In this document: one piece after another, positions 1 through 27,155 of the stretch | Layout of the letters: every line of letters starts with the position of its first letter | Numbering within the stretch: the first letter of the stretch is position 1 | NCBI GenBank assembly: GCA_964395055.1 | Contig: CAYNAA010000004.1 | Span: 1,830-65,829 of the forward strand | DNA: 64,000 nt | Source of the DNA: an uncultured Candidatus Izemoplasmatales bacterium | GTDB lineage: Bacteria > Bacillota_I > Bacilli_A > Izemoplasmatales > Izemoplasmataceae | Direction of reading: 5' to 3' | Made by a program: the position numbers and the translations under genes | Notes under the pieces: model-generated | Seen by the model: only the letters and a program-made list of their open reading frames with translations | The model's database searches: none | What the model was told of the DNA's origin: nothing

Positions 1-712
1 TAGGAGGATATAGAAAACCTCCTGGTATGTAGATAACATCATAAATGCTATATACACTTGGATCCATGGATTTCGGGATTGACCATTTGAAAATCCCGGG
101 CGATTGATAATCGTCATCGTCATCGATTAGCGCTGCATTGCCCTTTCCGGGCCATATGGGAATTTCAGGCAAAATAGCCATGGTGGCGTGCCATTCAATT
201 GGCAGAGCCATCATGGCGGTCCATGCAGATTCCTTTGGTGGGGCAATCCGGTTTATCTCTTCGGCCATTCCGCCGGATAGGATTTGAATTTTCTCCCAAG
301 TACGAAAGGATATCTCACCTCTTGCGGTAGGAATCTCAAGGACAATCATATTTCCCCCTTGATACAAGGTGTATCGGGTATTTCCGGTACAAGTACCATA
401 TATCAAAGTGACATCCCATGGACAGTATTCCCCCAAAGTGGGAGTTATGGCGATCCCATTTTCTATATTTGCAGCCCGTTCCCTTCGCCATTGTGCCACT
501 TGGGCATTCACCAATTCTTGCATTGTGGAAATATGCCTCACCTCATCTAACGGGACAACGGTCCCGTGCTTAAAGAAAGCACGGAGCCGCTCAAAAGCGA
601 TTGCCGCTTGTGTGAAGTCCCGATACTCGAAGATGTATTTCTTATCGTTGGCCACATACATGTTCACGTTTTCTTCTCTCATGTCTTCTGTCCTCATGTT
701 TTCTGTCCTCAT
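1..712 (-). CDS. hypothetical protein; C-terminal end lies beyond the left window edge
   Basis: Minus-strand frame is open from ATG 712 to base 1, with in-frame alternative starts at 696, 682 and 661. Begins MRTENMRTEDMREENVNMYVANDKKYIFEY. Missing from the ORF track because it runs off the window. Plus-strand ORFs 284-874 are its shadow frames. Confidence 0.55.
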   Translation of the reverse strand, partial: MRTENMRTEDMREENVNMYVANDKKYIFEYRDFTQAAIAFERLRAFFKHGTVVPLDEVRHISTMQELVNAQVAQWRRERAANIENGIAITPTLGEYCPWDVTLIYGTCTGNTRYTLYQGGNMIVLEIPTARGEISFRTWEKIQILSGGMAEEINRIAPPKESAWTAMMALPIEWHATMAILPEIPIWPGKGNAALIDDDDDYQSPGIFKWSIPKSMDPSVYSIYDVIYIPGGFLYPP

Positions 713-723
713 AGAATATTCTA
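712..723. repeat. TAGAATATTCTA palindrome, exact copy
   Basis: 12/12. Its TAG (723-721, minus strand) is the stop of ORF 721-858. It abuts ATG 712 of the next ORF. Confidence 0.9.
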
Positions 724-858
724 CGACACGTCGAATCCGCTATTGCGGAAAGCCTTTAACTCACTCCAAGTCAATGCCATTTTAACCTCTCCCGGATATG
801 GTAATCCGGGGGCGCCAATCCTGATCGTCCGCATCGCATGGTCAATCCATACCGTCAT
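721..858 (-). CDS. small hypothetical protein (45 aa)
   Basis: Hand translation: MTVWIDHAMRTIRIGAPGLPYPGEVKMALTWSELKAFRNSGFDVS. AGGAG (867-871) lies 8 nt before ATG 858. Below the 60-aa cutoff of the ORF track. Confidence 0.4.
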   Translation of the reverse strand: MTVWIDHAMRTIRIGAPGLPYPGEVKMALTWSELKAFRNSGFDVS

Positions 859-871
859 GATGTTTTCTCCT

Positions 872-883
872 TAGAATATTCTA
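872..883. repeat. TAGAATATTCTA palindrome, exact copy
   Basis: 12/12. On the minus strand it is fused to the SD as TAGAATATTCTAAGGAG, 13 nt before ATG 858. Confidence 0.9.
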
Positions 884-901
884 AGAGTCGTTATGACTCT
901 T
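883..901 (-). promoter_or_regulatory. leader stem-loop (7-bp stem, 5-nt loop)
   Basis: AAGAGTC-ATAAC-GACTCTT on the minus strand, between the predicted promoter at 914-943 and the palindrome/SD. Confidence 0.5.
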
Positions 902-913
902 AACTATGCTCCC

Positions 914-943
914 ATTATAACACAAAGACCGGTCTTGTGTCAA
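914..943 (-). promoter_or_regulatory. sigma70-type consensus promoter reading leftward
   Basis: Minus strand reads TTGACA (943-938), an 18-nt spacer, then TATAAT (919-914) preceded by TGT (extended -10). Confidence 0.7.
925..936. promoter_or_regulatory. putative operator, perfect palindrome AAGACCGGTCTT (in the promoter spacer)
   Basis: 12-bp perfect palindrome inside the -35/-10 spacer. An identical copy lies at 948-959. Confidence 0.55.
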
Positions 944-947
944 GCAT

Positions 948-959
948 AAGACCGGTCTT
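948..959. promoter_or_regulatory. putative operator, perfect palindrome AAGACCGGTCTT (upstream of -35)
   Basis: Identical to 925-936, with centres 23 bp apart. The two copies bracket the -35 hexamer. Confidence 0.55.
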
Positions 960-960
960 T

Positions 961-1034: not shown

Positions 1035-1035
1035 G

Positions 1036-1047
1036 TAGAATATTCTA
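1036..1047. repeat. TAGAATATTCTA palindrome, exact copy
   Basis: 12/12. Non-coding, between the two repeat families upstream of the 914-943 promoter. Confidence 0.9.
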
Positions 1048-1056
1048 TCCCATACT

Positions 1057-2100: not shown

Positions 2101-2112
2101 TAGAATATTCTA
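2101..2112. repeat. TAGAATATTCTA palindrome, exact copy
   Basis: 12/12. Its TAG (2112-2110, minus strand) is the stop codon of ORF 2110-2295. Confidence 0.9.
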
Positions 2113-2295: not shown

Positions 2296-2334
2296 TTTCT
2301 TTCCTCTTCTTAGGTTTTTCTTAGGTCTTTTTTC

Positions 2335-2556
2335 TTAGGTCTTTTTCTTACGAAGCCGATCAATTTCTTTGTCCACCACATCCATAGCACCATGTAATGC
2401 TTCCCATTCCTTGGTTCCACACCATTCTGGGATCATTCGCCATGCTGCCCATGCCGCTGCTGTTTGCTTTATTATTTCACGCAGCCGTTCAATTTCTGCT
2501 ATGGCGCACTCGTGGTGTGCGCGCCAACATTCCTGATAATGGTTTTCATTATTCAT
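2335..2556 (-). CDS. small coiled-coil protein, paralogue set
   Basis: 73 aa. ECWRAHHECAIAEIERLRE parallels DCWRIYWKRAVAEVDRLRT of ORF 2549-3109. ATG 2556 follows AAGGA. Confidence 0.5.
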   Translation of the reverse strand: MNNENHYQECWRAHHECAIAEIERLREIIKQTAAAWAAWRMIPEWCGTKEWEALHGAMDVVDKEIDRLRKKKT

Positions 2557-3109
2557 CGTTTTGATCCTTTTTTCGGTTCAGCGTGGTTTTCAATTCCTCG
2601 ATACGGGAGTTGAAGTTCCCCCGCAGCCGCCGGACCTCATCCACCAACAACCCAAGAAGGTCGAGTAAAGCATCGTCAGTAGTATGAAGGTTATGGCTGT
2701 CTATTATGGGTCGCCAAGATTCGGATTGCGCCGCAATTACTTGGTGCACCAATGGTTCTATCACCGATTTTATGCTCTCACGTTCCGAGTCTAACCCTTT
2801 GGTCATAGCCACCCAGGCTTCATTGCACAGGTATTCTTCCCACAGGTATGTATACCCCGGATTGACAGCTACCTTATTGGGATTAGTGCCATGGCCATTG
2901 TAATACATGGTTTTGATTGCCTGCATCTTAATAGCGTTTCGCAAATTGCGATTTTCTGTTCGCAGCCGATCAACCTCCGCCACAGCGCGTTTCCAGTAAA
3001 TACGCCAACAATCTTCACTCATTGCTCTGGTCATCCTTTTCTCCGGTGTCATCCCACCGGCGCATATACATCCTCCATCCGAAATCCTACCGCTCACGTA
3101 TCGTTGCAT
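2549..3109 (-). CDS. coiled-coil protein, paralogue set (start probably ATG 3034)
   Basis: 186-aa maximal ORF. GGAG sits 6 nt before ATG 3034 (MTRAMSEDCW...). Lies in the GC-rich island. Confidence 0.5.
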   Translation of the reverse strand: MQRYVSGRISDGGCICAGGMTPEKRMTRAMSEDCWRIYWKRAVAEVDRLRTENRNLRNAIKMQAIKTMYYNGHGTNPNKVAVNPGYTYLWEEYLCNEAWVAMTKGLDSERESIKSVIEPLVHQVIAAQSESWRPIIDSHNLHTTDDALLDLLGLLVDEVRRLRGNFNSRIEELKTTLNRKKDQNDE

Positions 3110-3193
3110 ACTCCAGCCAGCGCACCTCGTTTCCTACCCGCACCGGTAGCCACAAAAACTTGCGCACGTCTCCGTAGTTGGGGATTGTCCACC

Positions 3194-3502
3194 TCATGAT
3201 TCGCCCTCCATGATTTCCTTCACGTTCTCATCTACCTTTGCCAACGCCTCGAGCAGCGCGAGTGTGGCAGACTGGGCACGACCGGTATAATAGGAATCTG
3301 TATAAGGCAAGTAAATGCTTGCACGACTCCGGATAATACGCTCAATATGCGGCTCCCCAGATATAAAATTCCAGAGCCATCCCAGCCACCATCCGTCCAC
3401 AGTAACCGTATCTATGCTTTTAGTGGGGTCCGGGGCGATGCACTGCCATCCAGTAAATTTCCAGCAACCACACTCACAAATCCCTACTTTACCCACGCCC
3501 AC
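3194..3502 (-). CDS. hypothetical protein (GC-rich island)
   Basis: GTG start with no clear SD. The translation looks protein-like, whereas the overlapping plus-strand ORFs are S/P/H-rich junk. Confidence 0.35.
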   Translation of the reverse strand: MGVGKVGICECGCWKFTGWQCIAPDPTKSIDTVTVDGWWLGWLWNFISGEPHIERIIRSRASIYLPYTDSYYTGRAQSATLALLEALAKVDENVKEIMEGES

Positions 3503-3553
3503 GGCGCGGCTTCGGGCGTCATACCCACCAGGTGGGCGAGTTCGGCTATCTGG

Positions 3554-5074: not shown

Positions 5075-5094
5075 AGCTGCCTTCTCTCCAAGGT

Positions 5095-5106
5095 TAGAAT
5101 ATTCTA
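5095..5106. repeat. TAGAATATTCTA palindrome, exact copy
   Basis: 12/12. Marks the right edge of the GC-rich island and lies downstream of the tRNA and its hairpin. Confidence 0.9.
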
Positions 5107-5257: not shown

Positions 5258-5269
5258 TAGAATATTCTA
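5258..5269. repeat. TAGAATATTCTA palindrome, exact copy
   Basis: 12/12. Ends 1 nt before the 5' end of the tRNA. Confidence 0.9.
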
Positions 5270-5340: not shown

Positions 5341-6417
5341 TTACTCTGAGAGAATGTCATTCACCATCTCCCAAAAGCGATCTGGGTCCTTGTCCCGAGC
5401 TTCTTCAATACGAATAAGCTCATCTTCTAAATCTGGTAATTCTTCCTGAGCAACCTTGTCACCCAGAGCTGCATCTAATTGTCGTGCCAAGATTTGACTA
5501 CGACAAACATTTCGCGCACTTTTCAGTTTCTTTGGCCCCCATGTTTTTGGGGCTTTTTCTTTTCGTGGCTTGTCTTTGTCTGCTCTCTTCTGTTTCAACC
5601 ACTCTTCAGCTTCTTCTTCATTTTTGATACCATCGACTTCGATGGCTGTTGCAGATGTAAACTTGATTGCATCTTTATCGCCATCGCAGTATTGCTTAAA
5701 TTCTTCTTCAATGAGCGAATGCGCTGAAGCGATCCGCTTAAAATACTGCACTTTTCCACGCCATGTTTCCAAACGGGCTTGTTCAATGGTAGTTACCTTC
5801 TTCGATCCCACCATTGTGAACCCGTGCTTTCTCAATTCATCTAAACGAGCATCCAATGCCAGTTTGGCTCGCGAGCCTCCTAGCTTATAAAACAGGGGAG
5901 AAAGGATATTTGCGATCTCACCTTCAGTTCGATTCTGTCGGACATAGCGTTTCACAGCAAGATAGAGCTCAAACATATCGAGCTCTTCTTCACTGCCATG
6001 ATCCATCATAAGGCGCTGTCGCGTTGGCTCATCAAGATTCAAGACAAGACGATAGGGAACCTGTCCCTCGTAGTGCTTCTTGAAAAACTCTGGCTCGTTA
6101 TCCCGGAGCCACATCAAAGCTCGATGACGTAGAAAACCACAAATACCACGCGGCTTCGCATCATCTTTAGTGGTGTTCATATCCCCCACGATCAAGGGAG
6201 TGCGAATAAAACCATCAGCTTTGAGCTCTGCAATTTTTCGTGTCACTCGCTCATCATATTTGTCAGTGCGGCGAACATTCCACTTTGTAGAATAATCTAC
6301 ATCATCGAGATTGAAATAGTGAAGTTCCTTGTCAGTTTCGATTTCGATTTGTGTGTGCAACTCCGCCATTATTTCAGTGTCAGCATTTAATTCTTCTTGT
6401 ACATGCTCAGTGGTCAT
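5341..6417 (-). CDS. ParB/Srx-superfamily N-terminal domain protein (paralogue C)
   Basis: TPLIVGD...GICGFLRHRALMWL matches the ParB-box GxxRxxA pattern. Lysine/glutamate-rich C-terminus. Confidence 0.5.
   Translation of the reverse strand: MTTEHVQEELNADTEIMAELHTQIEIETDKELHYFNLDDVDYSTKWNVRRTDKYDERVTRKIAELKADGFIRTPLIVGDMNTTKDDAKPRGICGFLRHRALMWLRDNEPEFFKKHYEGQVPYRLVLNLDEPTRQRLMMDHGSEEELDMFELYLAVKRYVRQNRTEGEIANILSPLFYKLGGSRAKLALDARLDELRKHGFTMVGSKKVTTIEQARLETWRGKVQYFKRIASAHSLIEEEFKQYCDGDKDAIKFTSATAIEVDGIKNEEEAEEWLKQKRADKDKPRKEKAPKTWGPKKLKSARNVCRSQILARQLDAALGDKVAQEELPDLEDELIRIEEARDKDPDRFWEMVNDILSE
6288..6299. repeat. palindrome variant TAGAATAATCTA (11/12), inside a CDS
   Basis: One mismatch. 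It is the reverse complement of the variant at 6727-6738. Confidence 0.6.
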
Positions 6418-6440: not shown

Positions 6441-6452
6441 TAGAATATTCTA
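6441..6452. repeat. TAGAATATTCTA palindrome, exact copy
   Basis: 12/12. Its TAG (6452-6450) is the stop of ORF 6450-6713. It lies 23 nt before ATG 6417. Confidence 0.9.
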
Positions 6453-6726: not shown

Positions 6727-6738
6727 TAGATTATTCTA
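6727..6738. repeat. palindrome variant TAGATTATTCTA (11/12)
   Basis: Lies between the 14-bp repeat array and the SD of ORF 6450-6713. Confidence 0.7.
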
Positions 6739-6740
6739 CC

Positions 6741-6852: not shown

Positions 6853-6870
6853 TTTCGCCATCATATCTCT

Positions 6871-6900
6871 ATTATATCACAGAAGTAGGTTCAATGTCAA
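6871..6900 (-). promoter_or_regulatory. sigma70-type consensus promoter reading leftward
   Basis: Minus strand reads TTGACA (6900-6895), an 18-nt spacer, then TATAAT (6876-6871) preceded by TGA (extended -10). Confidence 0.7.
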
Positions 6901-6915
6901 GTCTTCCACTATTAT

Positions 6916-6945
6916 ATTATAGTAGTTTTTTTGATCGAAAGTTAA
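6916..6945 (-). promoter_or_regulatory. second promoter, -35 abutting the palindrome
   Basis: Minus strand reads TTAACT (6945-6940), an 18-nt spacer, then TATAAT (6921-6916). Shares the 16-mer AAAAACTACTATAATA with the promoter at 27112-27140. Confidence 0.5.
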
Positions 6946-6957
6946 TAGAATATTCTA
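6946..6957. repeat. TAGAATATTCTA palindrome, exact copy
   Basis: 12/12. Lies 3 nt after the TAA stop of ORF 6961-7845 and directly upstream of the -35 at 6940-6945. Confidence 0.9.
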
Positions 6958-7977: not shown

Positions 7978-7989
7978 TAGAATACTCTA
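7978..7989. repeat. palindrome variant TAGAATACTCTA (11/12)
   Basis: Its minus-strand TAG (7989-7987) is the stop of ORF 7987-8163. It is fused to the SD as ...TTCTAAGGAG. Confidence 0.7.
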
Positions 7990-8163: not shown

Positions 8164-8783
8164 TTTTCCTCCTTAGAATATTCTAATCCCTGTTGGAGTA
8201 CATCTCTTATTGCTTGTAAGTGTTCATCCTTAGCCTTAAAACACTTACGTTGATAAACCATATACTCTATAAGCATGGGTAATTCTGTTCGTATTTCTGC
8301 GATAAAACGAGCATTGTTCTCTTTATCTTTTAGAGGTAAACTTGTCACAGATCCAGAGACTACACCTCCTCTTTGTATATTCTTTCCGTAAGTAGTGTCA
8401 CATATTAAATGAGCCTTTGAGTTATTTTCTTTAACAACCCATGGTGCCCGTGTAGCTAGATCATTAAGGGCTTCCAAATACTTTACAACATTAAAACCTA
8501 GTGTCATCATATCTATAGCTAATTCTGTAATATAGCCATGGTTGTTAAAACAATTTTCAAAGAAAGCTAATTTATTTTTATGTGCCTCACATGAATATAG
8601 GATCAAAGTTGAATGGTTAGCAGTGGTTGTTCGTAGCATAAAATTTGAGCTTACTAAATCTACGGAATCAGGATGCTCAAAGGTAATAGTCAAAGCATGT
8701 GTTGTAGATTTCTTACAAACAATACATTCTCGTCCATAAGACTCCATTTTAACTAATGCAGCATGTCCTTCATAGTAAGTCAT
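8160..8783 (-). CDS. hypothetical protein (207 aa)
   Basis: ATGA overlap with the amidase gene at 8780-8783. Palindrome 8174-8185 is embedded in its last codons (LEYSK). Confidence 0.6.
   Translation of the reverse strand: MTYYEGHAALVKMESYGRECIVCKKSTTHALTITFEHPDSVDLVSSNFMLRTTTANHSTLILYSCEAHKNKLAFFENCFNNHGYITELAIDMMTLGFNVVKYLEALNDLATRAPWVVKENNSKAHLICDTTYGKNIQRGGVVSGSVTSLPLKDKENNARFIAEIRTELPMLIEYMVYQRKCFKAKDEHLQAIRDVLQQGLEYSKEEK
8174..8185. repeat. TAGAATATTCTA palindrome, exact copy
   Basis: 12/12. Read as L-E-Y-S in ORF 8160-8783. On the minus strand it is fused to AGGAGG, 10 nt before ATG 8163. Confidence 0.9.
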
Positions 8784-11259: not shown

Positions 11260-11526
11260 TCAGCGGTCCATTGTATGAATATTGACAATACGTTTGTTAA
11301 TTTCTCTAAGATAATTTTTGGCCAAATCACTTTTAGGTAAACTAGAATATTCTAGCTCACAGTGTGAGAATCTATTCCCGAAAAAATAAGGAATAACTGC
11401 CACCGTGCCTTCTTCGTTTGTGAAGCCATCTAAAGTAAAATCACTAAGTGAAAGACTTTTTTCTTTCCCATCATTTATTGCTGCCCAAAAACGTGCAGTT
11501 AATTTTTGCCAAGATAATTCTTTCAT
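11260..11526 (-). CDS. hypothetical protein (88 aa)
   Basis: ATGA overlap with the upstream ORF at 11523-11526. Contains palindrome 11343-11354, read as ELEYSS. Confidence 0.55.
   Translation of the reverse strand: MKELSWQKLTARFWAAINDGKEKSLSLSDFTLDGFTNEEGTVAVIPYFFGNRFSHCELEYSSLPKSDLAKNYLREINKRIVNIHTMDR
11343..11354. repeat. TAGAATATTCTA palindrome, exact copy (14-bp CTAGAATATTCTAG)
   Basis: 12/12, extended to 14 bp. Lies inside a CDS. Confidence 0.9.
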
Positions 11527-12994: not shown

Positions 12995-13008
12995 GAGTTT
13001 TTTCCTTA

Positions 13009-13034: not shown

Positions 13035-13038
13035 GCTA

Positions 13039-13050
13039 TAGAATATTCTA
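13039..13050. repeat. TAGAATATTCTA palindrome, exact copy
   Basis: 12/12. Its TAG (13050-13048) is the stop of ORF 13048-13257. Confidence 0.9.
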
Positions 13051-13259: not shown

Positions 13260-14657
13260 TTAAGTCTCCTGTACATAGTAGAGTTTTTTCATTGCCCGAG
13301 TAATGGCGATGTATTCTAAGTTATCCTCTTGAATCATCTGCCATTCTTTCGTGCATTTCGGATGTGGAAGAAGCTCGGGGTGGAGCAAAAAGACTCGATC
13401 AGTTTCTAAACCTTTACTTCGATGAATAGTGGCGCATACCACACCCTCCAAATTGTTGGAGAACAATTGCTCAATACCTTTTTCAATACCTTCTCGGCCA
13501 AAGGCTTCAAGCAATGCTCTCACAGTATCCACTTTATCACGAATTGCTACCAACCGAGCTTCATCTTTAATTCGCTCAGTCATTTGTTGCTCATACTCAT
13601 CGAGATCATCAACATGCTTTACCAGCTCCAATAAGCCTTCCCCTATTTCTCGACCTTTGACAATGGCTTTGCGTTGGTTACGGATAAGGGAAAGAGCGAA
13701 TTGAACAATAGGAGCAGTTGTACGGCATAAAACATAATCCCCCTCTTGAACAGTTTCTAAAAGATCCTCACGAGAAATACTCGTGACTTGACCTTCTTCA
13801 GCATCTTCAACTGATTCAATTTGAGGGACAATCCTTTTTGCCTCTTCAACAATGGCACGAGCACAACGGTAGCATATGCTCAACGGCAGAACATCTGCCG
13901 AAAAACGTGCAACGATATTATCAATGGCATCATGACTTGCGCCGCGAAAACCATAGATCGCTTGTCTTGTATCCCCTACAGCAATAACTCGTTTTGCAAC
14001 CCGATGAACCAAATCAATCTGTGCAGGGGATAAGTCTTGAGCTTCATCAACAAATACATAGTCATAGGGGGGCATTTTGAGATCATGATATATCGGAAGA
14101 AAAATCATATCATCAAAATCAATGACTTTCTTTTTCTGGATACCTAATTTATGTGTATTGATTGCATGTGAAATAAAACTTTCATCTTGACAATTAATAC
14201 CAAAATGATCGATAAGCCAATCAATTTCTCGAGGGCTTGGTTCAATGATATTATGGGCTTTGAAAAGGGCCACTAATTGAAGAGTAGCTGAACGAATCTT
14301 AAAGAGACGTTGTTTGGCCTCTTTATCATCCTTTGGGTTATCAAAAATATCGAACCAAAGAATATTTTGATTCTTGTTATTATTGACTTTAACCCAACCC
14401 AAGTTTTTTCGGATCATTCTAAATCCAAGAGAATGAAGTGTAGAGACTTCAACATGCTGGGGGGCACGTTGGCTTAGTTCCTCGGCAATATGCTTATTGA
14501 AGGCAATAAAAAGTGTTTTCTTATCTTTTGGTAAGAATTCCAAAGCCTTAACAATTGTGCTAGTTTTTCCTGAACCAGCCACCGCATTTATTACCGCATT
14601 ACCACAACCATTCTGGATGTATTCAAACACGGCTTTTTGATATCTATTTGGGATCAT
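13260..14657 (-). CDS. UvrD/Rep/PcrA-type SF1 DNA helicase
   Basis: AVAGSGKTS (Walker A), VFVDEAQDL (motif II), GDTRQAIYGFRGA (III), TIHRSKGLE (V/VI) and ITRAMKKL. Confidence 0.85.
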   Translation of the reverse strand: MIPNRYQKAVFEYIQNGCGNAVINAVAGSGKTSTIVKALEFLPKDKKTLFIAFNKHIAEELSQRAPQHVEVSTLHSLGFRMIRKNLGWVKVNNNKNQNILWFDIFDNPKDDKEAKQRLFKIRSATLQLVALFKAHNIIEPSPREIDWLIDHFGINCQDESFISHAINTHKLGIQKKKVIDFDDMIFLPIYHDLKMPPYDYVFVDEAQDLSPAQIDLVHRVAKRVIAVGDTRQAIYGFRGASHDAIDNIVARFSADVLPLSICYRCARAIVEEAKRIVPQIESVEDAEEGQVTSISREDLLETVQEGDYVLCRTTAPIVQFALSLIRNQRKAIVKGREIGEGLLELVKHVDDLDEYEQQMTERIKDEARLVAIRDKVDTVRALLEAFGREGIEKGIEQLFSNNLEGVVCATIHRSKGLETDRVFLLHPELLPHPKCTKEWQMIQEDNLEYIAITRAMKKLYYVQET

Positions 14658-15366
14658 TATTTTCTCCTAGTAAGTAGTTTATTCGATGTCGCATACGTTT
14701 TCTTTTGTTGTTAACAGTTACTTTTGTAACTCCAAGTTGTCTGCCAATTTCTTCATCCGTGTAGCCTTCTACTCTTTGAAGAATAATTCGTTTCTCTGTT
14801 TCTGTAAAAAGATCTGAATTCAAGACCTCTTGGTATAACATTGGAAAGGCATCATCTCTTTTTCCAATATATCCTGGATGATATCCCATCTTTTCGCTAT
14901 CGGCTTCATTTCTAGGAGTAAGATTTTCGATATGCTCAAATTCTTGAAACAAATCATTTAGGTCATACTCTTTTAATTTAATAATCAGCCATGCCGAATT
15001 TATTGGGGGTGCTACGACATGATCCTTTTTTATATATGTCTGAAGATAGCCCCAGATACTTTTATGTATATAGGCAGAAAAATTGTTATGTAGAGTCATT
15101 ACCTCGTTGTTAGCAACTTTTCTTGTGCAAATAATTAAATGCAGTAATCCTTGAGCGAATAAATCTTCAGCTTTGAATGGATGAAACACGCTCAACCTAG
15201 CAGCTATGGCGGCAACCAGTCGAATATGACCTTTAATTAATTCATCGATTGCCGCAGCGTCACCTTCCCTTGCTTTTTTTAAGTAATATTGTGTCTCATC
15301 TGCTGTCAGTGCTTTAGGGGGATTTTTAATTCCCCGAAATGACCTTCTCACTTCTTCTCTCCACAA
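14644..15366 (-). CDS. sigma-70 family (ECF-like) sigma factor
   Basis: A region-2-like helix (LIKGHIRLVAAIAARL) and a region-4 HTH (RIILQRVEGYTDEEIGRQLGVTKVTVNNKRKR). No ATG in the first ~90 codons. The track start is TTG. GTG 15351 follows GGAGAGAAGAA. Confidence 0.7.
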   Translation of the reverse strand: MWREEVRRSFRGIKNPPKALTADETQYYLKKAREGDAAAIDELIKGHIRLVAAIAARLSVFHPFKAEDLFAQGLLHLIICTRKVANNEVMTLHNNFSAYIHKSIWGYLQTYIKKDHVVAPPINSAWLIIKLKEYDLNDLFQEFEHIENLTPRNEADSEKMGYHPGYIGKRDDAFPMLYQEVLNSDLFTETEKRIILQRVEGYTDEEIGRQLGVTKVTVNNKRKRMRHRINYLLGENNDPK

Positions 15367-15790
15367 TCCAAAAGATTATTGGTTCCCCTAATTCAAGTGT
15401 CTCTTTCCCAGTTACTGGATCAATGAGTAAAACATTCTCATGATCCCAAGCAAAAGCATGTGCCGGTCCTGAAGCTTGTCGTACCAATACTCCTGAGTAA
15501 TTTCGCATATAATTCCAAATTCTTGCCTTAAAGTTAGGATGCTTTCCAATAGGAAGTAAATTACCTTCAAAGTCAAAAGCTTGTATGATTTCGGTAATAG
15601 AATATTCTATATTCAAAACTTCAATGATTTCTTGTATGTGAAAACACTGATACGGAAAATCCGTGATATATTTTTTATTTAACCCCGTGTGCCCGATATT
15701 ATATATAAGGTCATTGACATCCTTGTTTGTTACCATAGCAAAAGCCGTTGGCAAACATGCACTTATATTAGGTTGTTTCTGTGGTCTCAT
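15326..15790 (-). CDS. hypothetical protein, possible papain-like/C39-like cysteine peptidase
   Basis: N-terminal Q..NISACLPTAFAM (a Q...C pattern) and a later PAHAFAWD (His). Weak, by eye only. Confidence 0.35.
   Translation of the reverse strand: MRPQKQPNISACLPTAFAMVTNKDVNDLIYNIGHTGLNKKYITDFPYQCFHIQEIIEVLNIEYSITEIIQAFDFEGNLLPIGKHPNFKARIWNYMRNYSGVLVRQASGPAHAFAWDHENVLLIDPVTGKETLELGEPIIFWIVERRSEKVISGN
15598..15609. repeat. TAGAATATTCTA palindrome, exact copy (in CDS)
   Basis: 12/12. Read as I-E-Y-S-I. Confidence 0.9.
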
Positions 15791-16086: not shown

Positions 16087-17000
16087 TTGTCTCCTTCACT
16101 GTTATCTCTATTATAACACATTTTCTCTTTTATGTCAAGAGTTACGGTTTCCGCAATCGAAAACAGTTTTGCTACAGGACCGTCATTTACGATAACGGTA
16201 TCCCATTCCGTAAAATTATCAAGAGCAGTATCTGGTACTGATGTAGAATATTCTATTCGTGGATTTTCTATCTTAAATAGCTTTCCTTTTTTCTTGTGTA
16301 TTGCTTTTGCTTCATCGGGAAACCTAACATCTGTAATAATTACAACATTAGCATTATGGGGTGTATTTAATAGATACGCTGTCCAAGTATTTTCCCAAAC
16401 TTGCTCACGTATCGCGGGCGTGCCCATTCGTATTAATGTTTCGCGTGCGGTCAGGCCCGTAGCAAGTGTTAAATCTTTATCTTGGGGCTTATATCTATAA
16501 TGCATCTCAGACCTAAATCCTGCCCAGCCATACAATCTATGACATATTTCATATAAAGGAGAAGCGAATGCAGTAATATGTGTAGTGAGACCAAGAGCAT
16601 TTAATTTTGCCGAAAGCACTAAAGCAAAAGTGTCTTTCCCTACTCCACTTTTATGCCCTAATCCAATGAAAAAAGGAATGAAGGGATAGATGACTTCTCT
16701 TTCTTTTATGGCTTTTTGATTAGTGACTTCTCTTTCTTTTGCGGCTTCTCTTTCTTTTGCGACTTCTCTTTCTTTTGCGACTTCTCTTTCTTTTGTGGCT
16801 TCTCTTTCTTTTGTGGCTTCTCTTTCTTTTTCACCAACACAACTACAAATAAGCAGTTTGCATTTATTGTAGTCCATAATTAAACCTTTTCCATGACATA
16901 AATTACAATTAAGATTTGCGTTAGGGTATTGGGGCATCTCCCCTGGATCAATACTAAAAATCAGCTGATCGTAATCTTGAGTTTCAAGCTCTCGCATCAT
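16083..17000 (-). CDS. deoxynucleoside monophosphate kinase with N-terminal zinc knuckle and KEREAT repeat linker
   Basis: CNLCHGKG. Six KERE(A/V)(A/T/V) hexapeptides. P-loop GLGHKSGVGKDT, the G..SGKDT type seen in phage dNMP kinases. Confidence 0.6.
   Translation of the reverse strand: MMRELETQDYDQLIFSIDPGEMPQYPNANLNCNLCHGKGLIMDYNKCKLLICSCVGEKEREATKEREATKEREVAKEREVAKEREAAKEREVTNQKAIKEREVIYPFIPFFIGLGHKSGVGKDTFALVLSAKLNALGLTTHITAFASPLYEICHRLYGWAGFRSEMHYRYKPQDKDLTLATGLTARETLIRMGTPAIREQVWENTWTAYLLNTPHNANVVIITDVRFPDEAKAIHKKKGKLFKIENPRIEYSTSVPDTALDNFTEWDTVIVNDGPVAKLFSIAETVTLDIKEKMCYNRDNSEGDK
16244..16255. repeat. TAGAATATTCTA palindrome, exact copy (in CDS)
   Basis: 12/12. Read as I-E-Y-S-T. A GATAAT lies 23 nt downstream on the minus strand. 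Confidence 0.9.
16722..16829 (-). repeat. 18-bp in-frame tandem repeat x6 (KEREAT linker)
   Basis: Residues 58-93 of ORF 16083-17000. A degenerate seventh unit follows. Confidence 0.85.
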
Positions 17001-18334: not shown

Positions 18335-18641
18335 AAGTCGCCTTGATTTTGCGGATCAAGTCTTCTCGATTTTCTCCTGCCAACCCTAAAAAAGTACCTA
18401 AATCACGTAATTCATAAAGTGTTAGTGTCTCTAATTTTTGTCGTTTATGCCATTTACGCCATTTCTTCAATACTCCTAAATTCTCAGCCATAATAAGACG
18501 AACAAGTTGTTTCTTAATTCCTGTAGAAGATTCATTATAGAATATTCTAAATTCAGCGGAATTAATTAATCTTTCAATTGCTCTGAGATTATTAATCCGG
18601 TCTTTAACACTTTTAATAATATCATTTATTTGTCCGCCCAT
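18288..18641 (-). CDS. hypothetical protein (117 aa)
   Basis: Same-strand packing. Contains palindrome 18538-18549. Confidence 0.5.
   Translation of the reverse strand: MGGQINDIIKSVKDRINNLRAIERLINSAEFRIFYNESSTGIKKQLVRLIMAENLGVLKKWRKWHKRQKLETLTLYELRDLGTFLGLAGENREDLIRKIKATYGSEVKGVCTKVIKR
18538..18549. repeat. TAGAATATTCTA palindrome, exact copy (in CDS)
   Basis: 12/12. Read as R-I-F-Y. Confidence 0.9.
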
Positions 18642-21010: not shown

Positions 21011-21883
21011 TTATCTACCTGGAATACTAAGTTCTCCCGCTTTGGGAATACCTTCTTTTCTAACTTCATATACTTTACCGATCTCTGAAAAATGTGTCTG
21101 TAAGTCAGTCATTAAATCTAAATCAGAGATGTTGCCAGCTGCCCAAGCAAGCATCCTAGTGTGTATACCACTATACCCTCCAGACTCAAAATAATGATCG
21201 ATAAGATTTTGGATTTCTTCGGCTGAACGTGCGCGTGAGATTTTTGCTCGACTTTTTCGTGTGGCAACACTATCAGGAACCTTTATTTTTATGGGTCCAC
21301 TATACCCTTTTAACCGTTTATCTTTAATAGCTCTAGCAAATGCAAAACGATCACGTCTATTCTTCATGGAATAAAGTTTTCGTATTTGCTCATTTGTAAG
21401 CATTTCATCTTCAGCCATTTGCTGAATTTCTGGTTCAAGCTCTAAAAGATAAAGTCTAGGTTGAACCCAACCCGTGCTTCTTCCAATTCTTTTTTCAATT
21501 TCTCCACGATCCAATCCCATTCTAACGAATTTTGAAAGGGCATTTGCCTCTTGCATAATTGTCAAATCATGACGATCAATATTTTCTTGGAGATTTACAA
21601 TTGCAGCATCGGTTTTACTCAACTCCTTTTCACTTAAAGTAAAAGGCATTTCCTTCCACTCAAGAATTTTCATACAGGCATAACACCTGGTATAACCAGC
21701 AACGAGATCATATTTTTCCTTGATCCCCTCATGTGGTTTTACCTTGCGAATCAACGGTAATTGGTGTAAGCCTTCTTGTTTGATGCTCTTTGCTAAATTG
21801 AGAGCATGTTCATGCCTGATTCGTCCACGATTATTCGCGTCCCAATCTATGTGGACTTCATCCCATTTAAGTTTTAACTCCAT
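21011..21883 (-). CDS. ParB-like protein with HTH (paralogue B)
   Basis: LPLIRKV...YDLVAGYTRCYA gives the GxxRxxA box, followed by an HTH-like IGRSTGWVQPRLYLLEL. Confidence 0.6.
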   Translation of the reverse strand: MELKLKWDEVHIDWDANNRGRIRHEHALNLAKSIKQEGLHQLPLIRKVKPHEGIKEKYDLVAGYTRCYACMKILEWKEMPFTLSEKELSKTDAAIVNLQENIDRHDLTIMQEANALSKFVRMGLDRGEIEKRIGRSTGWVQPRLYLLELEPEIQQMAEDEMLTNEQIRKLYSMKNRRDRFAFARAIKDKRLKGYSGPIKIKVPDSVATRKSRAKISRARSAEEIQNLIDHYFESGGYSGIHTRMLAWAAGNISDLDLMTDLQTHFSEIGKVYEVRKEGIPKAGELSIPGR

Positions 21884-24786: not shown

Positions 24787-25208
24787 CGTAATACTCCTGT
24801 AGCTCTAAGTTGGTCTTCAACCTTCTTTAGCAAGATTTCTCCGCTTTTTTCCTTATTAGAATATTCTATGAGGGTTATCCAATCATAAATGGTTCCTGAT
24901 AGTATAGCTAAGGAAAAACCATACTTATCTGTATCCAAAATTGCAATATCAATCCCTGCAAATAAATCTTGCACCTCTTTTAGCATACTAAAAGGAAAAG
25001 TGCCCAAAAACAATAAGGGCGTCAATTTCGCTGCTTTTTTCTTTCCCAAATAATGTTTGAGAGTTATCGGTAAAGCTAGGAAATGATCTAAGTCAACCCC
25101 AAAATTCGCAGCTTCTTCTAAGACCCGTTCTTCCCTATTCCAATTAATGATATTTTCATAAGTAGCGGTTGCCATTGCAAAGGGTGTAATTTTTATGTCG
25201 AAAGTCAT
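24768..25208 (-). CDS. hypothetical protein (146 aa)
   Basis: Same-strand packing. Contains palindrome 24857-24868 (IEYSN), 70 nt before the SNF2 start. Confidence 0.5.
   Translation of the reverse strand: MTFDIKITPFAMATATYENIINWNREERVLEEAANFGVDLDHFLALPITLKHYLGKKKAAKLTPLLFLGTFPFSMLKEVQDLFAGIDIAILDTDKYGFSLAILSGTIYDWITLIEYSNKEKSGEILLKKVEDQLRATGVLRWWQTK
24857..24868. repeat. TAGAATATTCTA palindrome, exact copy (in CDS)
   Basis: 12/12. Confidence 0.9.
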
Positions 25209-25229
25209 TTGGCAACCTTTTTTTATTTT

Positions 25230-25266
25230 GTGGCGGACAGGCTAGGGAAGTTAGCCTGCCCGCCAC
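25230..25266. other. 15-bp intergenic stem-loop (1 mismatch)
   Basis: GTGGCGGACAGGCTA, a 7-nt loop, then TAGCCTGCCCGCCAC. An A-rich tract rather than a U-tract follows on the transcribed strand. Confidence 0.7.
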
Positions 25267-25289
25267 GCACGGGGGACAGAGAGAGAAGC

Positions 25290-26003
25290 TTAACGTTCCC
25301 GGGTTTCGGCAGTCGAATCAACCTCGACCGGTTCTTCATCATCCCAAGGTGCAGAGACTTCCTCGGTATTTTGGAAATTCTTGATCTGTTCTGTCATTTC
25401 CGCAATATCCGGGGGAACGGCAAACGGGGTTGTACAGGGCTTGACATTGAGTCCCCACCAACTATATTCATCATTGTCAATGGGATCAGATTTCAATGTT
25501 GCAGCCTTGCGCAAATAAGCAATCAACGTTGTCTTTGCAACACGACGAAGAGTAGGATTGTTGCAAAAGAAAGTCATGAACTTACCTGTTTCACCGTGGT
25601 AAAACAGAAATTCATAACCCCAGAAATAACCGCGTGTTTTGTCATTGGCACGCTTCTGAAACTCTTGAAACTTCTCCGACGTGTGGTCATACACAACATC
25701 GATCTTGCCAGTCTGGCGGTTCGAGAACATTGCTCGCGGTCGGAAGTCACAGATGAACACATCAATGGCTTCACCAAGATCATGAACGTCAGACTTTCCA
25801 TATTTCAAGGCAAGATGTCCCTGAGTAATGGAATGAGGCGGCTTGGCCAAAACTGAAGATGACTGGACTAAAGTGAGATAAGGTAGCCAATTAGCTTCAT
25901 CACCTAATTCTTCTACAATGCTAGTTGAATTGGCGGCAGGTAAAAGACTTGCCAGATCATCTTGAACTACTGGGACATTTGTTTCATCAACCATGGTAAT
26001 CAA
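25290..26003 (-). CDS. hypothetical protein, possibly an ssDNA-binding/annealing protein
   Basis: About 237 aa with an acidic C-terminal tail (PWDDEEPVEVD), positioned among replication genes. Guess from architecture only. Confidence 0.3.
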   Translation of the reverse strand: MITMVDETNVPVVQDDLASLLPAANSTSIVEELGDEANWLPYLTLVQSSSVLAKPPHSITQGHLALKYGKSDVHDLGEAIDVFICDFRPRAMFSNRQTGKIDVVYDHTSEKFQEFQKRANDKTRGYFWGYEFLFYHGETGKFMTFFCNNPTLRRVAKTTLIAYLRKAATLKSDPIDNDEYSWWGLNVKPCTTPFAVPPDIAEMTEQIKNFQNTEEVSAPWDDEEPVEVDSTAETRER

Positions 26004-26018
26004 TTCTCCAATTGTGGT

Positions 26019-26969
26019 TTATTGAGCATTTTCGACAAGGGCTTCAGATTCTTCAGCTTTCTTGGCTTCTTCTCGTTGACGACGCTCTTCAGCACGCTTT
26101 CTCTTTGCCTCTTGTTCCTGTTCCCACTTTTCACGCTCAATCTGCTCTGTTTTGGGATCAACCCGAAGAACCCAATCGATAGCGAGATCAAAAGCTTCAA
26201 CAGGCGTCATGTTGTCAGTGACAAGATCCGCGCGTGCCTTATGAGTTTCCTGTTCATCCAGAATATCCGTCTTAGAACGCACACGAGGAAGAAGTTTGAA
26301 TGTCTCAGCCCCGGCTTTCTTTCCGGCTCGCTGAGCAGTCTTGATCTGTTCAAGGCGTGCCTTTGCGGCTTCCACGAAAACTTCAGGAGACTGTTCACTT
26401 GCCCGCTTAACCCATTGAAGCTGTTCGTCTGCCGGAAGCTTCGCAAGCTGTTGAGCATTGGTAAGTGGAATATCACCATTGTCAACGCTTTCCTGAATTT
26501 CCGGTACCAACTTGGATAGATTCATACGGGCCGTGATCCAAGCGGGGGAAACATTCATTTCCTCGGCAAGCTGACTGATAGTTACATCATCATTCAGCGC
26601 CAAATAGTGCATGATCGCGCGACCATATTCCGCAGGCTTAGTCTTAATGTTATGCAGATTCGCTTGAATCTGAAGACTAAGTGTTTTGGATTCATCAGCA
26701 TCCAAAATTTGTGCCGGAATTGTATCATAATTCAACAATTCACAAATAGCCACACGCTGAAGGCCATCAATGAGGATGTAAATCTCTTCGCCGGTTTCCT
26801 CATCAATGGTCTCTCGAACGGTGATCGACTGTAAAACGCCTTCCTTTTCAATGGAACGCTTCAGAAATTCAAATTCCTCTGATTCAGTTTTGGCTTCTCG
26901 TAATGCCCTTTCACCTGCTTTGATTTTGCTTACTTGTACTTCTTCGATTCGTCCACGATTTGCTTCCAT
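26019..26969 (-). CDS. ParB-like protein with HTH (paralogue A)
   Basis: LQSITVRE...YILIDGLQRVAICELL gives the ParB box. HTH TISQLAEEMNVSPAWITARMNLSKL. K/E-rich C-terminus. Confidence 0.7.
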   Translation of the reverse strand: MEANRGRIEEVQVSKIKAGERALREAKTESEEFEFLKRSIEKEGVLQSITVRETIDEETGEEIYILIDGLQRVAICELLNYDTIPAQILDADESKTLSLQIQANLHNIKTKPAEYGRAIMHYLALNDDVTISQLAEEMNVSPAWITARMNLSKLVPEIQESVDNGDIPLTNAQQLAKLPADEQLQWVKRASEQSPEVFVEAAKARLEQIKTAQRAGKKAGAETFKLLPRVRSKTDILDEQETHKARADLVTDNMTPVEAFDLAIDWVLRVDPKTEQIEREKWEQEQEAKRKRAEERRQREEAKKAEESEALVENAQ

Positions 26970-27111
26970 GATCCTGTTTTCTCCTGGTTTGATAATAGAT
27001 CAGCTTTACCCGATCAGTAAGGGCTGGACTGATATTATTATCATTCTTCAATTAACACACAAGCCATTGTCAAATAAACGGGAATTGAAATGTACTCCCG
27101 CCGTCTATTTT

Positions 27112-27140
27112 ATTATAGTAGTTTTTCGGGAAAAAGTAAA
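27112..27140 (-). promoter_or_regulatory. leftward promoter of the divergent control region
   Basis: Minus strand reads TTTACT (27140-27135), a 17-nt spacer, then TATAAT (27117-27112). Shares AAAAACTACTATAATA with the promoter at 6916-6945. Confidence 0.5.
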
Positions 27141-27142
27141 GA

Positions 27143-27155
27143 TAGAATGATTCTA
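27143..27155. repeat. palindrome variant TAGAAT-G-ATTCTA (13 bp, arms intact)
   Basis: Both 6-bp arms are conserved, with one extra central base. Lies 2 nt upstream of the -35 at 27135-27140. Confidence 0.7.

Follow-up and report, generated by a model that had tools for sequence, protein, structure and literature searches.

A 12-bp perfect palindrome, TAGAATATTCTA, is dispersed through the leftward early/replication arm of this phage sequence, and its relatives carry other palindromes in the same arm. This family-wide pattern, read from sequence comparison, in which palindromy is kept while the sequence changes, is the new result of the present analysis. On balance, we consider it moderately probable that the 12-mer is a double-stranded DNA operator through which a phage-encoded, sequence-specific homodimer would regulate transcription of the arm.

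The palindrome occurs in 16 exact copies in the window (the whole 64-kb stretch analysed), whereas 100 dinucleotide-preserving shuffles gave 0 copies. All 16 lie where the first-pass annotation had placed them, and its view that their number is far above chance holds. Five one-mismatch copies were found in addition, four of which are altered at a central base. The earlier list of variants had included four of these five (6288, 6727, 7978 and 38830) and overlooked 35938; its remaining entry, 27143, is no substitution variant but a 13-bp palindrome, TAGAAT-G-ATTCTA, with one extra base inserted centrally. The copies, to which no strand is assigned, are as follows.

712..723, exact; TAG is the stop codon of ORF 721-858; next ATG ~14 nt on
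872..883, exact; 5′ UTR of predicted promoter P943, +24 to +35; fused to AGGAG; ATG 858 13 nt on
1036..1047, exact; intergenic; centre ~-135 from the predicted P943 start site
2101..2112, exact; stop codon of ORF 2110-2295; ATG 2077 23 nt on
5095..5106, exact; 63 nt downstream of the tRNA-Leu 3′ end; upstream edge of a GC-rich island
5258..5269, exact; ends 1 nt before the tRNA-Leu 5′ end
6288..6299, one mismatch, central base; within ORF 5341-6417
6441..6452, exact; stop codon of ORF 6450-6713; ATG 6417 23 nt on
6727..6738, one mismatch, central base; end of a long 5′ UTR; ATG 6713 13 nt on
6946..6957, exact; 0-nt gap to the -35 box of predicted promoter 6945-6916; centre -43
7978..7989, one mismatch; stop codon of ORF 7987-8163; fused to AGGAG
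8174..8185, exact; final codons of ORF 8160-8783 (LEYSK); fused to AGGAGG; ATG 8163 10 nt on
11343..11354, exact; within ORF 11260-11526 (LEYS)
13039..13050, exact; stop codon of ORF 13048-13257; next come a GC-rich hairpin and then a Shine-Dalgarno sequence
15598..15609, exact; within ORF 15326-15790 (IEYS); sigma-like gene start 231 nt on
16244..16255, exact; within ORF 16083-17000 (IEYS); ~106 nt upstream of the -35 box of predicted consensus promoter 16138-16110
18538..18549, exact; within ORF 18288-18641 (RIFY)
24857..24868, exact; within ORF 24768-25208 (IEYS); helicase start 24786 70 nt on
27143..27155, 13-bp form; divergent promoter gap; 2 nt upstream of the P_L -35 box; centre -45
35938..35949, one mismatch; within late ORF 35543-36043
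38830..38841, one mismatch, outer base; late region
47930..47941, exact; within the 3419-aa late ORF (RIFY)

Fifteen of the 16 exact copies fall in the arm (1-27.2 kb; binomial p = 3e-5), 47930 being the sole exception. Nine of these 15 are intergenic or touch just a stop codon (p = 3e-6), against a background non-coding share of ~10% in the 1-27 kb arm. A recount bears out that the first 13.1 kb holds 14 of the 21 copies; the late block contains three (35938, 38830 and 47930) rather than the two first reported. As the first-pass annotation had described, the minus-strand TAG of the motif terminates the five ORFs so marked above, the motif lies 10-23 nt before the next start codon at six copies (872, 2101, 6441, 6727, 7978 and 8174; the distance is ~14 nt for the copy at 712 and 44 nt for that at 13039), it is joined to a Shine-Dalgarno AGGAG at 872, 7978 and 8174, and in-gene copies are translated as (I/L)EYS (8174, 11343, 15598, 16244 and 24857) or RIFY (18538 and 47930). 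The tRNA-Leu is bracketed by two exact copies, which, like the promoter geometry and the family-wide pattern described below, had escaped the first-pass annotation. The role as stop codon and the placement ahead of the Shine-Dalgarno sequence are genuine, and are most readily explained by the need to fit a 12-bp DNA site into tiny intergenic gaps, together with a preference for locations around +35 relative to promoters. The earlier suggestion that the DNA word is kept at the expense of the protein needs tempering: in the two cases compared with orthologues, the encoded peptides fall in poorly conserved stretches, and the cost is probably small.

In syntenic uncultured relatives, whose PolA is 52-59% identical, this arm contains perfect palindromes of other sequences: TCCCAATTGGGA in L008 (15 exact and 8 one-off copies in 22 kb), GATCGTACGATC in L010, AGAATsATTCT in L013, AGAAGCnGCTTCT in L094 and TAGCAnnTGCTA, shared by L095 and L096. 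More distant relatives have GATT-N5-AATC (11-27 copies per 18-22 kb locus, 10 in L062, versus <1 expected), GATT-N4-AATC, TGATA-N4-TATCA or TGTTA-N4-TAACA. Restriction to the arm was compared in L008 and L096, the two relatives for which a stretch of structural genes was available: the 76-kb contig of L008 has 23 copies in its 22-kb arm versus 1 in 19.6 kb of structural genes, and L096 has 9 exact copies versus 0 exact in 12.4 kb. The centre and spacing vary within and between phages (12 versus 13 bp in the window, nn in L095/L096, s or n in L013/L094). Flanking the 12 bases, we found no conservation apart from a purine-rich (Shine-Dalgarno) tract downstream, and no -35-like element. Symmetry conserved without sequence is as expected for a homodimer and its site evolving together.

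The copies also stand in a regular relation to promoters, which are consensus predictions. The following sites in the window are relevant here.

27112..27140, minus strand, promoter-like site P_L (TTTACT-17-TATAAT), leftward, upstream of the ParB1 operon
6871..6945, minus strand, two tandem promoter-like sites (TTAACT-18-TATAAT and a perfect TTGACA-18-TGnTATAAT)
914..943, minus strand, perfect consensus promoter-like site P943 (TTGACA-18-TGnTATAAT)
16110..16138, minus strand, perfect consensus promoter-like site upstream of the operon with the sigma-like gene

P_L and promoter 6945-6916 have the cassette AAAACTACTATAAT in common, and their -35 boxes are adjoined by motif copies (27143 and 6946, respectively). 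Across 23 strong sigma70-like promoters scored in seven phages, the motif is centred at +25 to +45 in six (0.29 expected), at -80 to -40 in six (0.55 expected) and lies within 80 bp in 11 (2.1 expected), the random-position null ignoring the shared preference of promoters and motifs for intergenic DNA. Across phages the motif keeps to two positions, one adjoining the -35 box, with its centre between -43 and -76, and the other right ahead of the Shine-Dalgarno sequence, at +29 to +38. The copy at 27143 occupies the gap between divergent promoters; being upstream of each, it is transcribed from neither and is probably untranscribed. A point against the operator reading comes from L010, which has strong predicted promoters without a nearby motif and a second palindrome family.

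The position of many copies immediately before a Shine-Dalgarno sequence or at the tRNA 5′ end would also suit a signal acting in RNA, and RNA processing was one of three options raised by the first-pass annotation. This explanation is the weaker one: hairpin stems are only 4-7 bp with mostly non-significant z-scores, the bases of the would-be loop are themselves symmetric, and six exact copies lie in genes, at least 70 nt from the next start codon. There is also little support for another of those options, a shuffling joint comparable to PeSL elements. The palindrome has neither a promoter nor a stable stem-loop; the GC-rich island has a motif copy at one boundary only; and a motif that differs between relatives cannot mediate exchange between them. 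The remaining option, recognition by a dimeric factor that binds DNA or RNA, with ParB-like candidates, is supported in its DNA form by the symmetry in relatives and the -35-adjacent sites. A double-stranded DNA operator is favoured because dyad symmetry persists with changing sequence, a variable centre and no conserved flanks, and because one site is probably untranscribed and RNA hairpins are weak.

Candidate readers and associated proteins are encoded in the arm.

26019..26969, minus strand, ParB1, ParB/Noc/Spo0J-like (ParB_N and HTH_ParB), first gene of the leftward arm
25290..26003, minus strand, 237-aa protein with no assigned fold, always directly downstream of ParB1 across the family
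21011..21883, minus strand, ParB2, also ParB-like, in which the GxxR and ENxxR boxes are canonical
14644..15366, minus strand, sigma-70-family protein with regions 2 and 4

Two ParB-like proteins, rather than the three first proposed, were confirmed in the window; in both, the N-terminal and HTH domains show matches to structures of Noc, Spo0J and ParB, and weakly to KorB. ParB2 is disfavoured as the reader because its recognition helix (GWVQPR or GWVQVR) hardly changes among phages of at least six motif classes. ParB1 appears to be the best candidate: its recognition helix varies between motif classes and is identical in L059 and L060, which have GATT-N5-AATC in common. Its covariation with the motif is confounded by phylogeny, and two points count against it. 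L095 and L096 have a common motif, yet their ParB1 helices differ at 6 of 15 positions, about as many as between the window and L096, and the nucleotide-pocket motifs of ParB1 are degenerate (GLQR for GERR, QANLH for ENLQR). Synteny of ParB1 with its 237-aa neighbour, a possible partner, extends across the whole family. An unbiased comparison of orthologues singled out no protein as the motif reader, and the reader may instead be host-encoded.

From these patterns we infer that a protein binds the 12-mer at all, and that its effect would be repression rather than activation or anti-silencing. Host RNA polymerase would start transcription of the arm at a small number of very strong sigma70-type promoters. 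The regulator, for which ParB1, with a motif site at its own promoter, is the best candidate, would be made early and bind both promoter-bracketing sites (immediately ahead of the -35 box or near +35) and a second class of sites, found at many junctions between genes and in some places within them, turning promoters down and/or blocking or modulating read-through. A +35 site is outside the polymerase footprint, and repression there would need a roadblock or looping. Late genes, in which no sigma70-like promoters were found in the window and which nearly lack the motif, would be read with the phage sigma-like factor, the probable driver of late transcription.

Dispersed palindromes are already known in phages, from Cluster O mycobacteriophages. 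The outcome proposed here would be a global regulon that spans the early arm, in the manner of KorB/OB or of stoperators. A precedent is RK2, in which KorB has a palindromic operator, OB, placed immediately upstream of the PkorA -35 box, and acts from distal sites as well (PMC11790492).

On balance, the 12-bp perfect palindrome TAGAATATTCTA probably constitutes a dispersed set of operators for a putative phage-encoded dimeric regulator of the early arm, the leftward early and replication genes that occupy roughly the first 27 kb of the window. Sixteen exact copies are present in the window and none in 100 dinucleotide-preserving shuffles, the control that the first-pass annotation had proposed; every exact copy that it had placed was recovered by exact search. 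A search with one mismatch allowed returned five more copies, a central base being altered in four of them:

6288, one-mismatch copy
6727, one-mismatch copy
7978, one-mismatch copy
35938, one-mismatch copy, missed in the first-pass annotation
38830, one-mismatch copy

A site at 27143, previously counted with these variants, is not a substitution variant but a 13-bp palindrome with one extra central base, TAGAAT-G-ATTCTA. All genes from 1 to ~27 kb lie on the minus strand, so that the arm is transcribed leftwards from ~27.1 kb. It holds 15 of the 16 exact copies (p = 3e-5), nine of which are intergenic or overlap a stop codon only, in an arm that is ~10% non-coding (p = 3e-6).

The use of the palindrome at gene junctions is stereotyped. 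ORF checks bear out the annotation in that at five copies the upstream gene takes its stop codon from the palindrome, and at least eight copies end 10–23 nt before a start codon, three of them fused to AGGAG. The only conservation flanking the 12 bases is a purine-rich Shine–Dalgarno tract downstream. Small genes or a tRNA lie between two copies in four places (872/712, 5258/5095, 6727/6441 and 8174/7978). Six exact copies are located inside genes, 70 to >6000 nt from the next start, and are read as (I/L)EYS or RIFY, as had been described. The accompanying claim, that the motif is kept at some cost to the protein, needs softening: in the two proteins compared with orthologues the copies fall in poorly conserved stretches, so the cost is probably small. 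Downstream of the 13039 copy, and before the next Shine–Dalgarno sequence, is a GC-rich hairpin, GCCGGGGGAGAATCTTCTCCCCCGGC (12995–13038, minus strand), which has no T-run on either strand and is not an obvious terminator.

The tRNA, which the first reading had missed, is a tRNA-Leu (anticodon UAA; 5170–5256, minus strand). Two copies bracket it: that at 5258–5269 stops 1 nt short of its 5′ end, and that at 5095–5106 is 63 nt beyond its 3′ end. Immediately downstream of the tRNA, after copy 5095, the region ~2300–5100 forms a GC-rich island (50–63% GC versus 35–40% around it) with 6–7 ORFs that have no Pfam matches and with no copy of the palindrome inside; it looks like recently acquired DNA.

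The recognized genes are those of a siphovirus-like phage, and the protein database places the window on a 72.7-kb contig with many metagenomic relatives, of which roughly 1,900 are matched through the family-A DNA polymerase. The genes on which the argument draws are:

Late block: P22-type coat protein
Late block: tape measure protein, 1996 aa
41785–52044, minus: 3419-aa ORF of the late block, neighbour of the tape measure gene
Early arm, replication: family-A DNA polymerase, UvrD-like and SNF2-like helicases, ligase
Early arm, nucleases and lysis: RNase H, an exonuclease, PD-(D/E)XK nuclease, amidase endolysin
14644–15366, minus: sigma-70-family protein (PHROG sigma factor, E = 6e-19)
21011–21883, minus: ParB2, ParB-like protein
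25290–26003, minus: 237-aa protein
26019–26969, minus: ParB1, ParB-like protein

Among 50,697 cultured phage records there is no DNA-level relative of the arm and no protein-level match to the polymerase (PolA); against cultured phages, ParB1 and the coat protein find only remote (27–31% identical) or generic matches. PolA has only remote matches and no close relative in 185,579 reference genomes. No ParA-type ATPase, integrase or endoribonuclease gene was recognized among the scanned ORFs, and no repressor-type HTH protein or lysogeny module in the window. The 3419-aa ORF has no Pfam match; its position is taken in relatives by ORFs of 2267 aa and 2813 aa.

The strongest predicted sigma70-type promoters of the arm, few in number, are:

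943–914, minus: perfect TTGACA-17/18-TGnTATAAT site (P943)
6900–6871, minus: perfect TTGACA-17/18-TGnTATAAT site
16138–16110, minus: perfect TTGACA-17/18-TGnTATAAT site
6945–6916, minus: good sigma70-type match
27140–27112, minus: good sigma70-type match, upstream of the ParB1 operon (P_L)
27279–27307, plus: good sigma70-type match

The late block (33000–64000) has no sigma70 match of comparable quality, the best being one weaker in-gene site at 38186; together with the phage's own sigma-70-family protein, this suggests that late transcription may proceed from phage-specific promoters. The 6946 copy directly adjoins the 6945 promoter at its −35 box, and in P_L only 2 nt separate the −35 box from the 13-bp copy at 27143; these two promoters have the cassette AAAACTACTATAAT in common. 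The 872 copy spans +24 to +35 of P943, and the remaining copies are at least 100 bp from promoters or inside genes. A shorter cassette, AAAACT(A/G)CTATAAT, is common to three early promoters (27112–27125 and 6916–6929, minus; 27294–27307, plus), and the 11-mer TGCTATAATAG to six family members with GC contents from 36% to 59%.

The geometry holds beyond the window. For 23 strong predicted promoters in seven phages, scored against random placement, a motif centre lies at +25 to +45 in 6 (0.29 expected), at −80 to −40 in 6 (0.55 expected) and within 80 bp in 11 (2.1 expected), p-values for these excesses being optimistic because the random-placement null ignores the intergenic preference common to promoters and motifs. 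Several promoters are bracketed by the motif on both sides, and the +29 to +38 position is still striking, recurring as it does in five phages, each of which has a different motif sequence.

That each phage has its own motif emerges from syntenic loci fetched around PolA relatives. In the same arm, the close relatives carry the following over-represented palindromes:

L008: TCCCAATTGGGA, 15 exact and 8 one-off copies in 22 kb
L010: GATCGTACGATC, 2 exact and 9 one-off copies
L013: cAGAATsATTCTg, 7 exact copies and 1 one-off copy
L015: cAGAATATTCTg, weaker, few copies
L094: gAGAAGCnGCTTCTc, 3 exact and 4 one-off copies
L095 and L096: TAGCAnnTGCTA, common to both; 9 exact and 7 one-off copies in 22 kb of L096

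Distant members have GATT-N5-AATC at 11–27 copies per 18–22 kb locus (10 in locus L062) against <1 expected, a motif that is not enriched in the near clade, or else GATT-N4-AATC, TGATA-N4-TATCA or TGTTA-N4-TAACA. Since each close relative has its own palindrome, the conserved property, as far as these sequences go, is dyad symmetry with dispersal rather than the word itself. Variation is tolerated in the central bases or in the spacing of the half-sites, whether one compares phages or copies in the window (12 versus 13 bp). The restriction to the early arm recurs in both of the two relatives for which a structural stretch was fetched: the L008 phage (76-kb contig) has 1 copy in 19.6 kb of structural genes versus 23 in the arm, and the L096 phage has 0 exact copies in 12.4 kb of structural genes versus 9 in the arm. 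Family GC ranges from 36% to 60%, implying different hosts. A scan of IMG/VR for TAGAATATTCTAAGGAG found six contigs with one copy each, the level expected by chance.

Several further repeats were seen in the family. L010 is also enriched in another palindrome, TATC-N3-GATA, which occurs 11 times in 22 kb (for example at 1439, 1532, 7006 and 9423) just before Shine–Dalgarno sequences or upstream of −35 boxes, and several of its one-off GATCGTACGATC copies overlap start codons (GATCGTACGATG). Iteron-like arrays of 14–17-bp direct repeats occur at 6740–6855 in the window, 5173–5320 in L014, 10394–10769 in L029 and ~16270–16320 in L015. The window array consists of 8.3 copies of CTTTAGCACAAAGT in the 5′ UTR, with tandem strong promoters on one side and a palindrome copy on the other, and those of the relatives adjoin the sigma-like gene; such arrays might be an origin or be bound by a second protein. 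The L014 and L029 repeats, being local tandem arrays, were rejected as dispersed sites. GATC is 1.8–3 times over-represented in all family members and AAGATCA/TGATCTT 10–20 times in L096, L099, L095 and L015 (35 versus 13 expected in the window), on both strands and in structural genes too; the phages encode a D12 (Dam-type) methyltransferase (30888–31730 in the window).

Only three DNA-binding proteins are recognized in the arm: ParB1, ParB2 and the sigma-like protein. Both ParB proteins have Pfam ParB_N and HTH_ParB matches and align through their N-terminal and HTH domains to structures of Noc, Spo0J and ParB and weakly to KorB (E = 0.002–0.009), the best matches being Noc and Spo0J, not KorB. 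For the CTP-pocket boxes on which clamp closure and sliding depend, GxxRxxA and ENxxR, ParB2 has GYTRCYA and ENIDRHDL; in ParB1 these read GLQRVAI and QANLH, with the Arg and Asn kept and the Glu lost, and its nucleotide-pocket motifs are degenerate. The recognition helix of ParB2 (GWVQPR or GWVQVR) is almost invariant across at least six motif classes, which disfavours ParB2 as the reader; a search for a site common to phages with the same ParB2 helix gave only the extended −10 sequence TGCTATAATAG. The ParB1 helix varies between motif classes and is identical in L059 and L060, two relatives that both have GATT-N5-AATC, yet it differs at 6 of 15 positions between L095 and L096, which have the same motif; this covariation is a correlation confounded by phylogeny. 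An unbiased comparison of orthologue identities between same-motif and different-motif pairs singled out no protein. A Cro-like reader was rejected, as the first gene of the rightward operon is HTH_3 in L094 only and is not conserved. If the sites are operators, ParB1 is the leading candidate reader, with perhaps even odds.

ParB1 and the 237-aa protein directly downstream are syntenic in all relatives. The latter matches nothing in Pfam, PHROG or the PDB profiles and finds only itself among indexed proteins, and its single-sequence AlphaFold model (pLDDT 35) gives no usable fold. ParB1 might conceivably direct a thymine dioxygenase, as in PMC13229309, but with these profiles the neighbour is not recognizable as any known family.

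The position of copies at gene junctions could mean that the signal acts on the polycistronic RNA, as a small hairpin (4–7-bp stem, 4-nt loop) or through copy–copy pairing, and is read by a nuclease or translational regulator for processing or control of ribosome binding; cistrons would then be punctuated in a way not seen before. The copies that precede start codons or are fused to AGGAG, the five stop codons and the pair flanking the tRNA-Leu fit such a role, as do the small predicted hairpins, which at two sites reach z = −2.4 and −2.6, and, in L008, a 3′ half whose GGGAG doubles as a Shine–Dalgarno sequence that a hairpin would sequester. However, five of seven folded sites are no better than shuffled sequence (z −1.4 to +0.4), the would-be loop bases are symmetric (ATAT, AATT and GTAC), which RNA folding does not need, and what is kept in all 16 copies is the exact sequence, not pairing with compensatory changes. 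Moreover, the six in-gene copies are not tied to a start codon by distance, other copies abut −35 boxes, the 27143 site lies upstream of both divergent promoters and is thus transcribed by neither, pairing between the 12-bp and 13-bp forms would be imperfect, and the scanned ORFs include no recognized endoribonuclease. Given the mostly weak hairpins, the symmetric loop bases, the exact conservation, the in-gene copies and those upstream of −35 boxes, we favour double-stranded DNA as the site, with a putative homodimer as its reader, and regard an RNA-level signal as rather unlikely. Of the first-pass proposal of a site for a dimeric factor, the duplex DNA form is thus supported and the RNA form is weaker; its dismissal of a terminator hairpin agrees with the 4–7-bp AU-rich stems and missing T-run, and an RNase III site was rejected because such stems fall short of an extended duplex of ~20 bp.

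Four other readings accept a DNA site but give it a different function. ParS-like loading sites for a ParB-type clamp might serve partition or compaction, for example in a plasmid-prophage state, with silencing as a by-product, as has reportedly been proposed for the transcriptional effect of the dispersed SopB sites of phage N15. The family conserves two genuine ParB/Noc-like proteins, palindromes of 12–13 bp are as long as parS, NBS and OB sites, chromosomal parS and Noc sites normally include some within genes, and the iteron-like arrays suggest plasmid-like replication; but the missing ParA-type ATPase and integrase, the fixed positions around promoters and the avoidance of the structural half in the window and both relatives tested, which segregation or compaction would not require, make a centromere-like or condensation role unlikely. 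A host regulator or nucleoid protein whose operator each phage has adopted would explain why motifs differ as hosts differ across the GC range of the family, the phage reader is so far a candidate only, and several motifs, such as TGATA-N4-TATCA, loosely resemble known bacterial operators. Against this, the trait is family-wide and always found with the same phage-encoded ParB pair, L095 and L096 have one motif despite 49% versus 42% GC, and sites taken over from a host regulon would not usually be perfectly identical in 16 copies, so that a host reader seems quite improbable. The annotation had also offered a cassette-shuffling joint comparable to promoter-early stem-loops (PeSLs), in which short homologies mediate gain, loss and shuffling of genes. 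The single small genes and the tRNA between copies suit it, as does the foreign-looking island that starts right after copy 5095 and holds none; the other edge of the island (~2330) is, however, not at a copy, motifs that differ between relatives preclude exchange between them, and few if any rearrangements occur at the analogous repeats of Cluster O phages (PMC4351075). With no promoter in or around the motif, weak hairpins and no sharing between relatives, the 12-bp word departs from PeSL architecture, and we consider a recombination joint very improbable. Least credible is a promoter element in which the TAGAAT half-site is a −10 box for a host or phage sigma factor, with transcripts starting 6–8 nt downstream, at the Shine–Dalgarno sequence or the tRNA 5′ end. 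TAGAAT does keep the TAnnnT core, TTGTTA-18-TAGAAT at 5258 would start at the first base of tRNA-Leu, and the phage encodes a sigma-family protein, but there is no −35 box, TG extension or other upstream conservation, a palindrome has no direction, TCCCAATTGGGA, GATCGTACGATC and TAGCAnnTGCTA are unlike −10 boxes, and several copies lie downstream of or beside separate full consensus promoters.

For the operator set that we favour, we envisage that host polymerase would initiate at the strong early promoters and that ParB1, or another phage dimer, would accumulate and bind the copies beside −35 boxes, at ~+35 and at gene junctions. The bound dimer would turn the arm down or modulate read-through, and the late genes, with no motif and no sigma70-type promoters, would use the phage sigma-like factor. 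A VirB-like anti-silencing role of the same protein–site pair is possible. A broader hypothesis, which we put forward only tentatively, is that a widespread family of uncultured siphophages makes its early-to-late switch with ParB1 as a ParB/KorB-like protein, possibly together with its 237-aa neighbour, that would load at phage-specific 12–13-bp palindromes bracketing host-type promoters and punctuating early operons and would silence the arm, protein and site having co-diversified like immunity groups. If so, a ParB-fold regulator would act as a switch that times transcription in phages that appear to be lytic, with a natural set of orthogonal ParB/operator pairs. The ParB fold is known for segregation, nucleoid occlusion, plasmid silencing (KorB) and anti-silencing (VirB); any ParB-like reader would add phage temporal gene control to these roles and make the family a ready-made panel of orthogonal protein/operator pairs.

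Among known systems, the start-associated sequence (SAS) of Cluster K phages is a 13-bp asymmetric word immediately upstream of many starts that includes the Shine–Dalgarno sequence and has a supposed role in translation. The 12-mer resembles it in lying just upstream of starts and overlapping or abutting the ribosome-binding site, but is palindromic and also found upstream of −35 boxes and deep in genes. PeSLs of T4-type phages combine an early promoter with a stable stem-loop, are common to phages and recombine. Like them, the 12-mer is a short repeat flanking small early genes; PeSLs, however, are longer, and the 12-mer has no promoter, stable stem-loop or sharing between phages. The PeSL, terminator, RNase III and −10 promoter readings were all rejected on their defining features. 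Cluster A stoperators (L5 gp71-type) are 13–14-bp sites in many copies for one phage regulator, which blocks promoters and elongation, and site and repressor specificity co-diversify between related phages (PMC9283540, PMC6550527). In the window, likewise, many sites occupy short gaps between genes (9 of the 15 early-arm copies are intergenic), and each relative has its own motif. Stoperators, in contrast, are asymmetric and oriented with transcription, whereas the sites in the window and its relatives are palindromic and the window sites avoid late genes; the stoperator reader is a two-domain immunity repressor that works as a monomer in temperate phages, and none was found in the window. Membership of this class was rejected on the perfect palindromes and on the lack of a repressor-type HTH protein, integrase or ParA in the window.

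The closest worked example is KorB of RK2. About a dozen (twelve) OB sites are present on RK2, some upstream of −35 boxes, including that of the regulator's own operon, and others distal. OB is a perfect palindrome of 13 bp, TTTAGCSGCTAAA, on a mobile element of ~60 kb, and KorB represses from proximal and distal sites as a CTP-dependent clamp, one OB lying directly upstream of the PkorA −35 box (PMC11790492). The window similarly has about a dozen short, near-identical palindromes, some at −35 boxes including that of the candidate regulator's operon, and its candidate reader is, like the global repressor KorB, a ParB-family protein with an HTH. The two differ in that binding of reader to site is only proposed in the window, on sequence grounds, that no KorA- or TrbA-like co-repressor to lock the clamp and no IncC/ParA was found among the early-arm ORFs by Pfam or PHROGs, and that the nucleotide-pocket motifs of ParB1 are degenerate; the window element is a phage with sites confined to one temporal gene class, and many of them lie at +35 or gene junctions, unlike the OB pattern.

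Closest in kind is the 17-bp dyad repeat of Cluster O mycobacteriophages, TGTTCGGNNNCCGAACA, which has >30 copies and a variable centre; most copies belong to one long leftward operon of non-structural genes, where they lie in gaps between genes or close to gene 5′ ends, and some are in genes (PMC4351075). These phages are not obviously temperate and encode a protein with a ParB-like domain; the authors of that study predicted a dimeric DNA-binding reader and placed most sites away from predicted promoters (PMC4351075). Both elements have an invariant inverted repeat, a tolerated variable centre, a non-structural operon and no flank conservation. They differ in architecture (6-0-6 versus 7-3-7), in the marked promoter association of the window sites, mostly absent in Cluster O, and in the number of motifs, with one in all five Cluster O genomes and a separate one per relative here. 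Thus the kind, a genome-wide palindromic phage repeat of unexplained function, is already known from Cluster O; new are the motif's diversification throughout the family, its geometry around promoters and the ParB link. With many relatives that each have their own motif, a fixed promoter position and few conserved DNA-binding candidates, the present family is a cleaner case than Cluster O, one in which the reader and its action could be findable by a few binding and reporter experiments.
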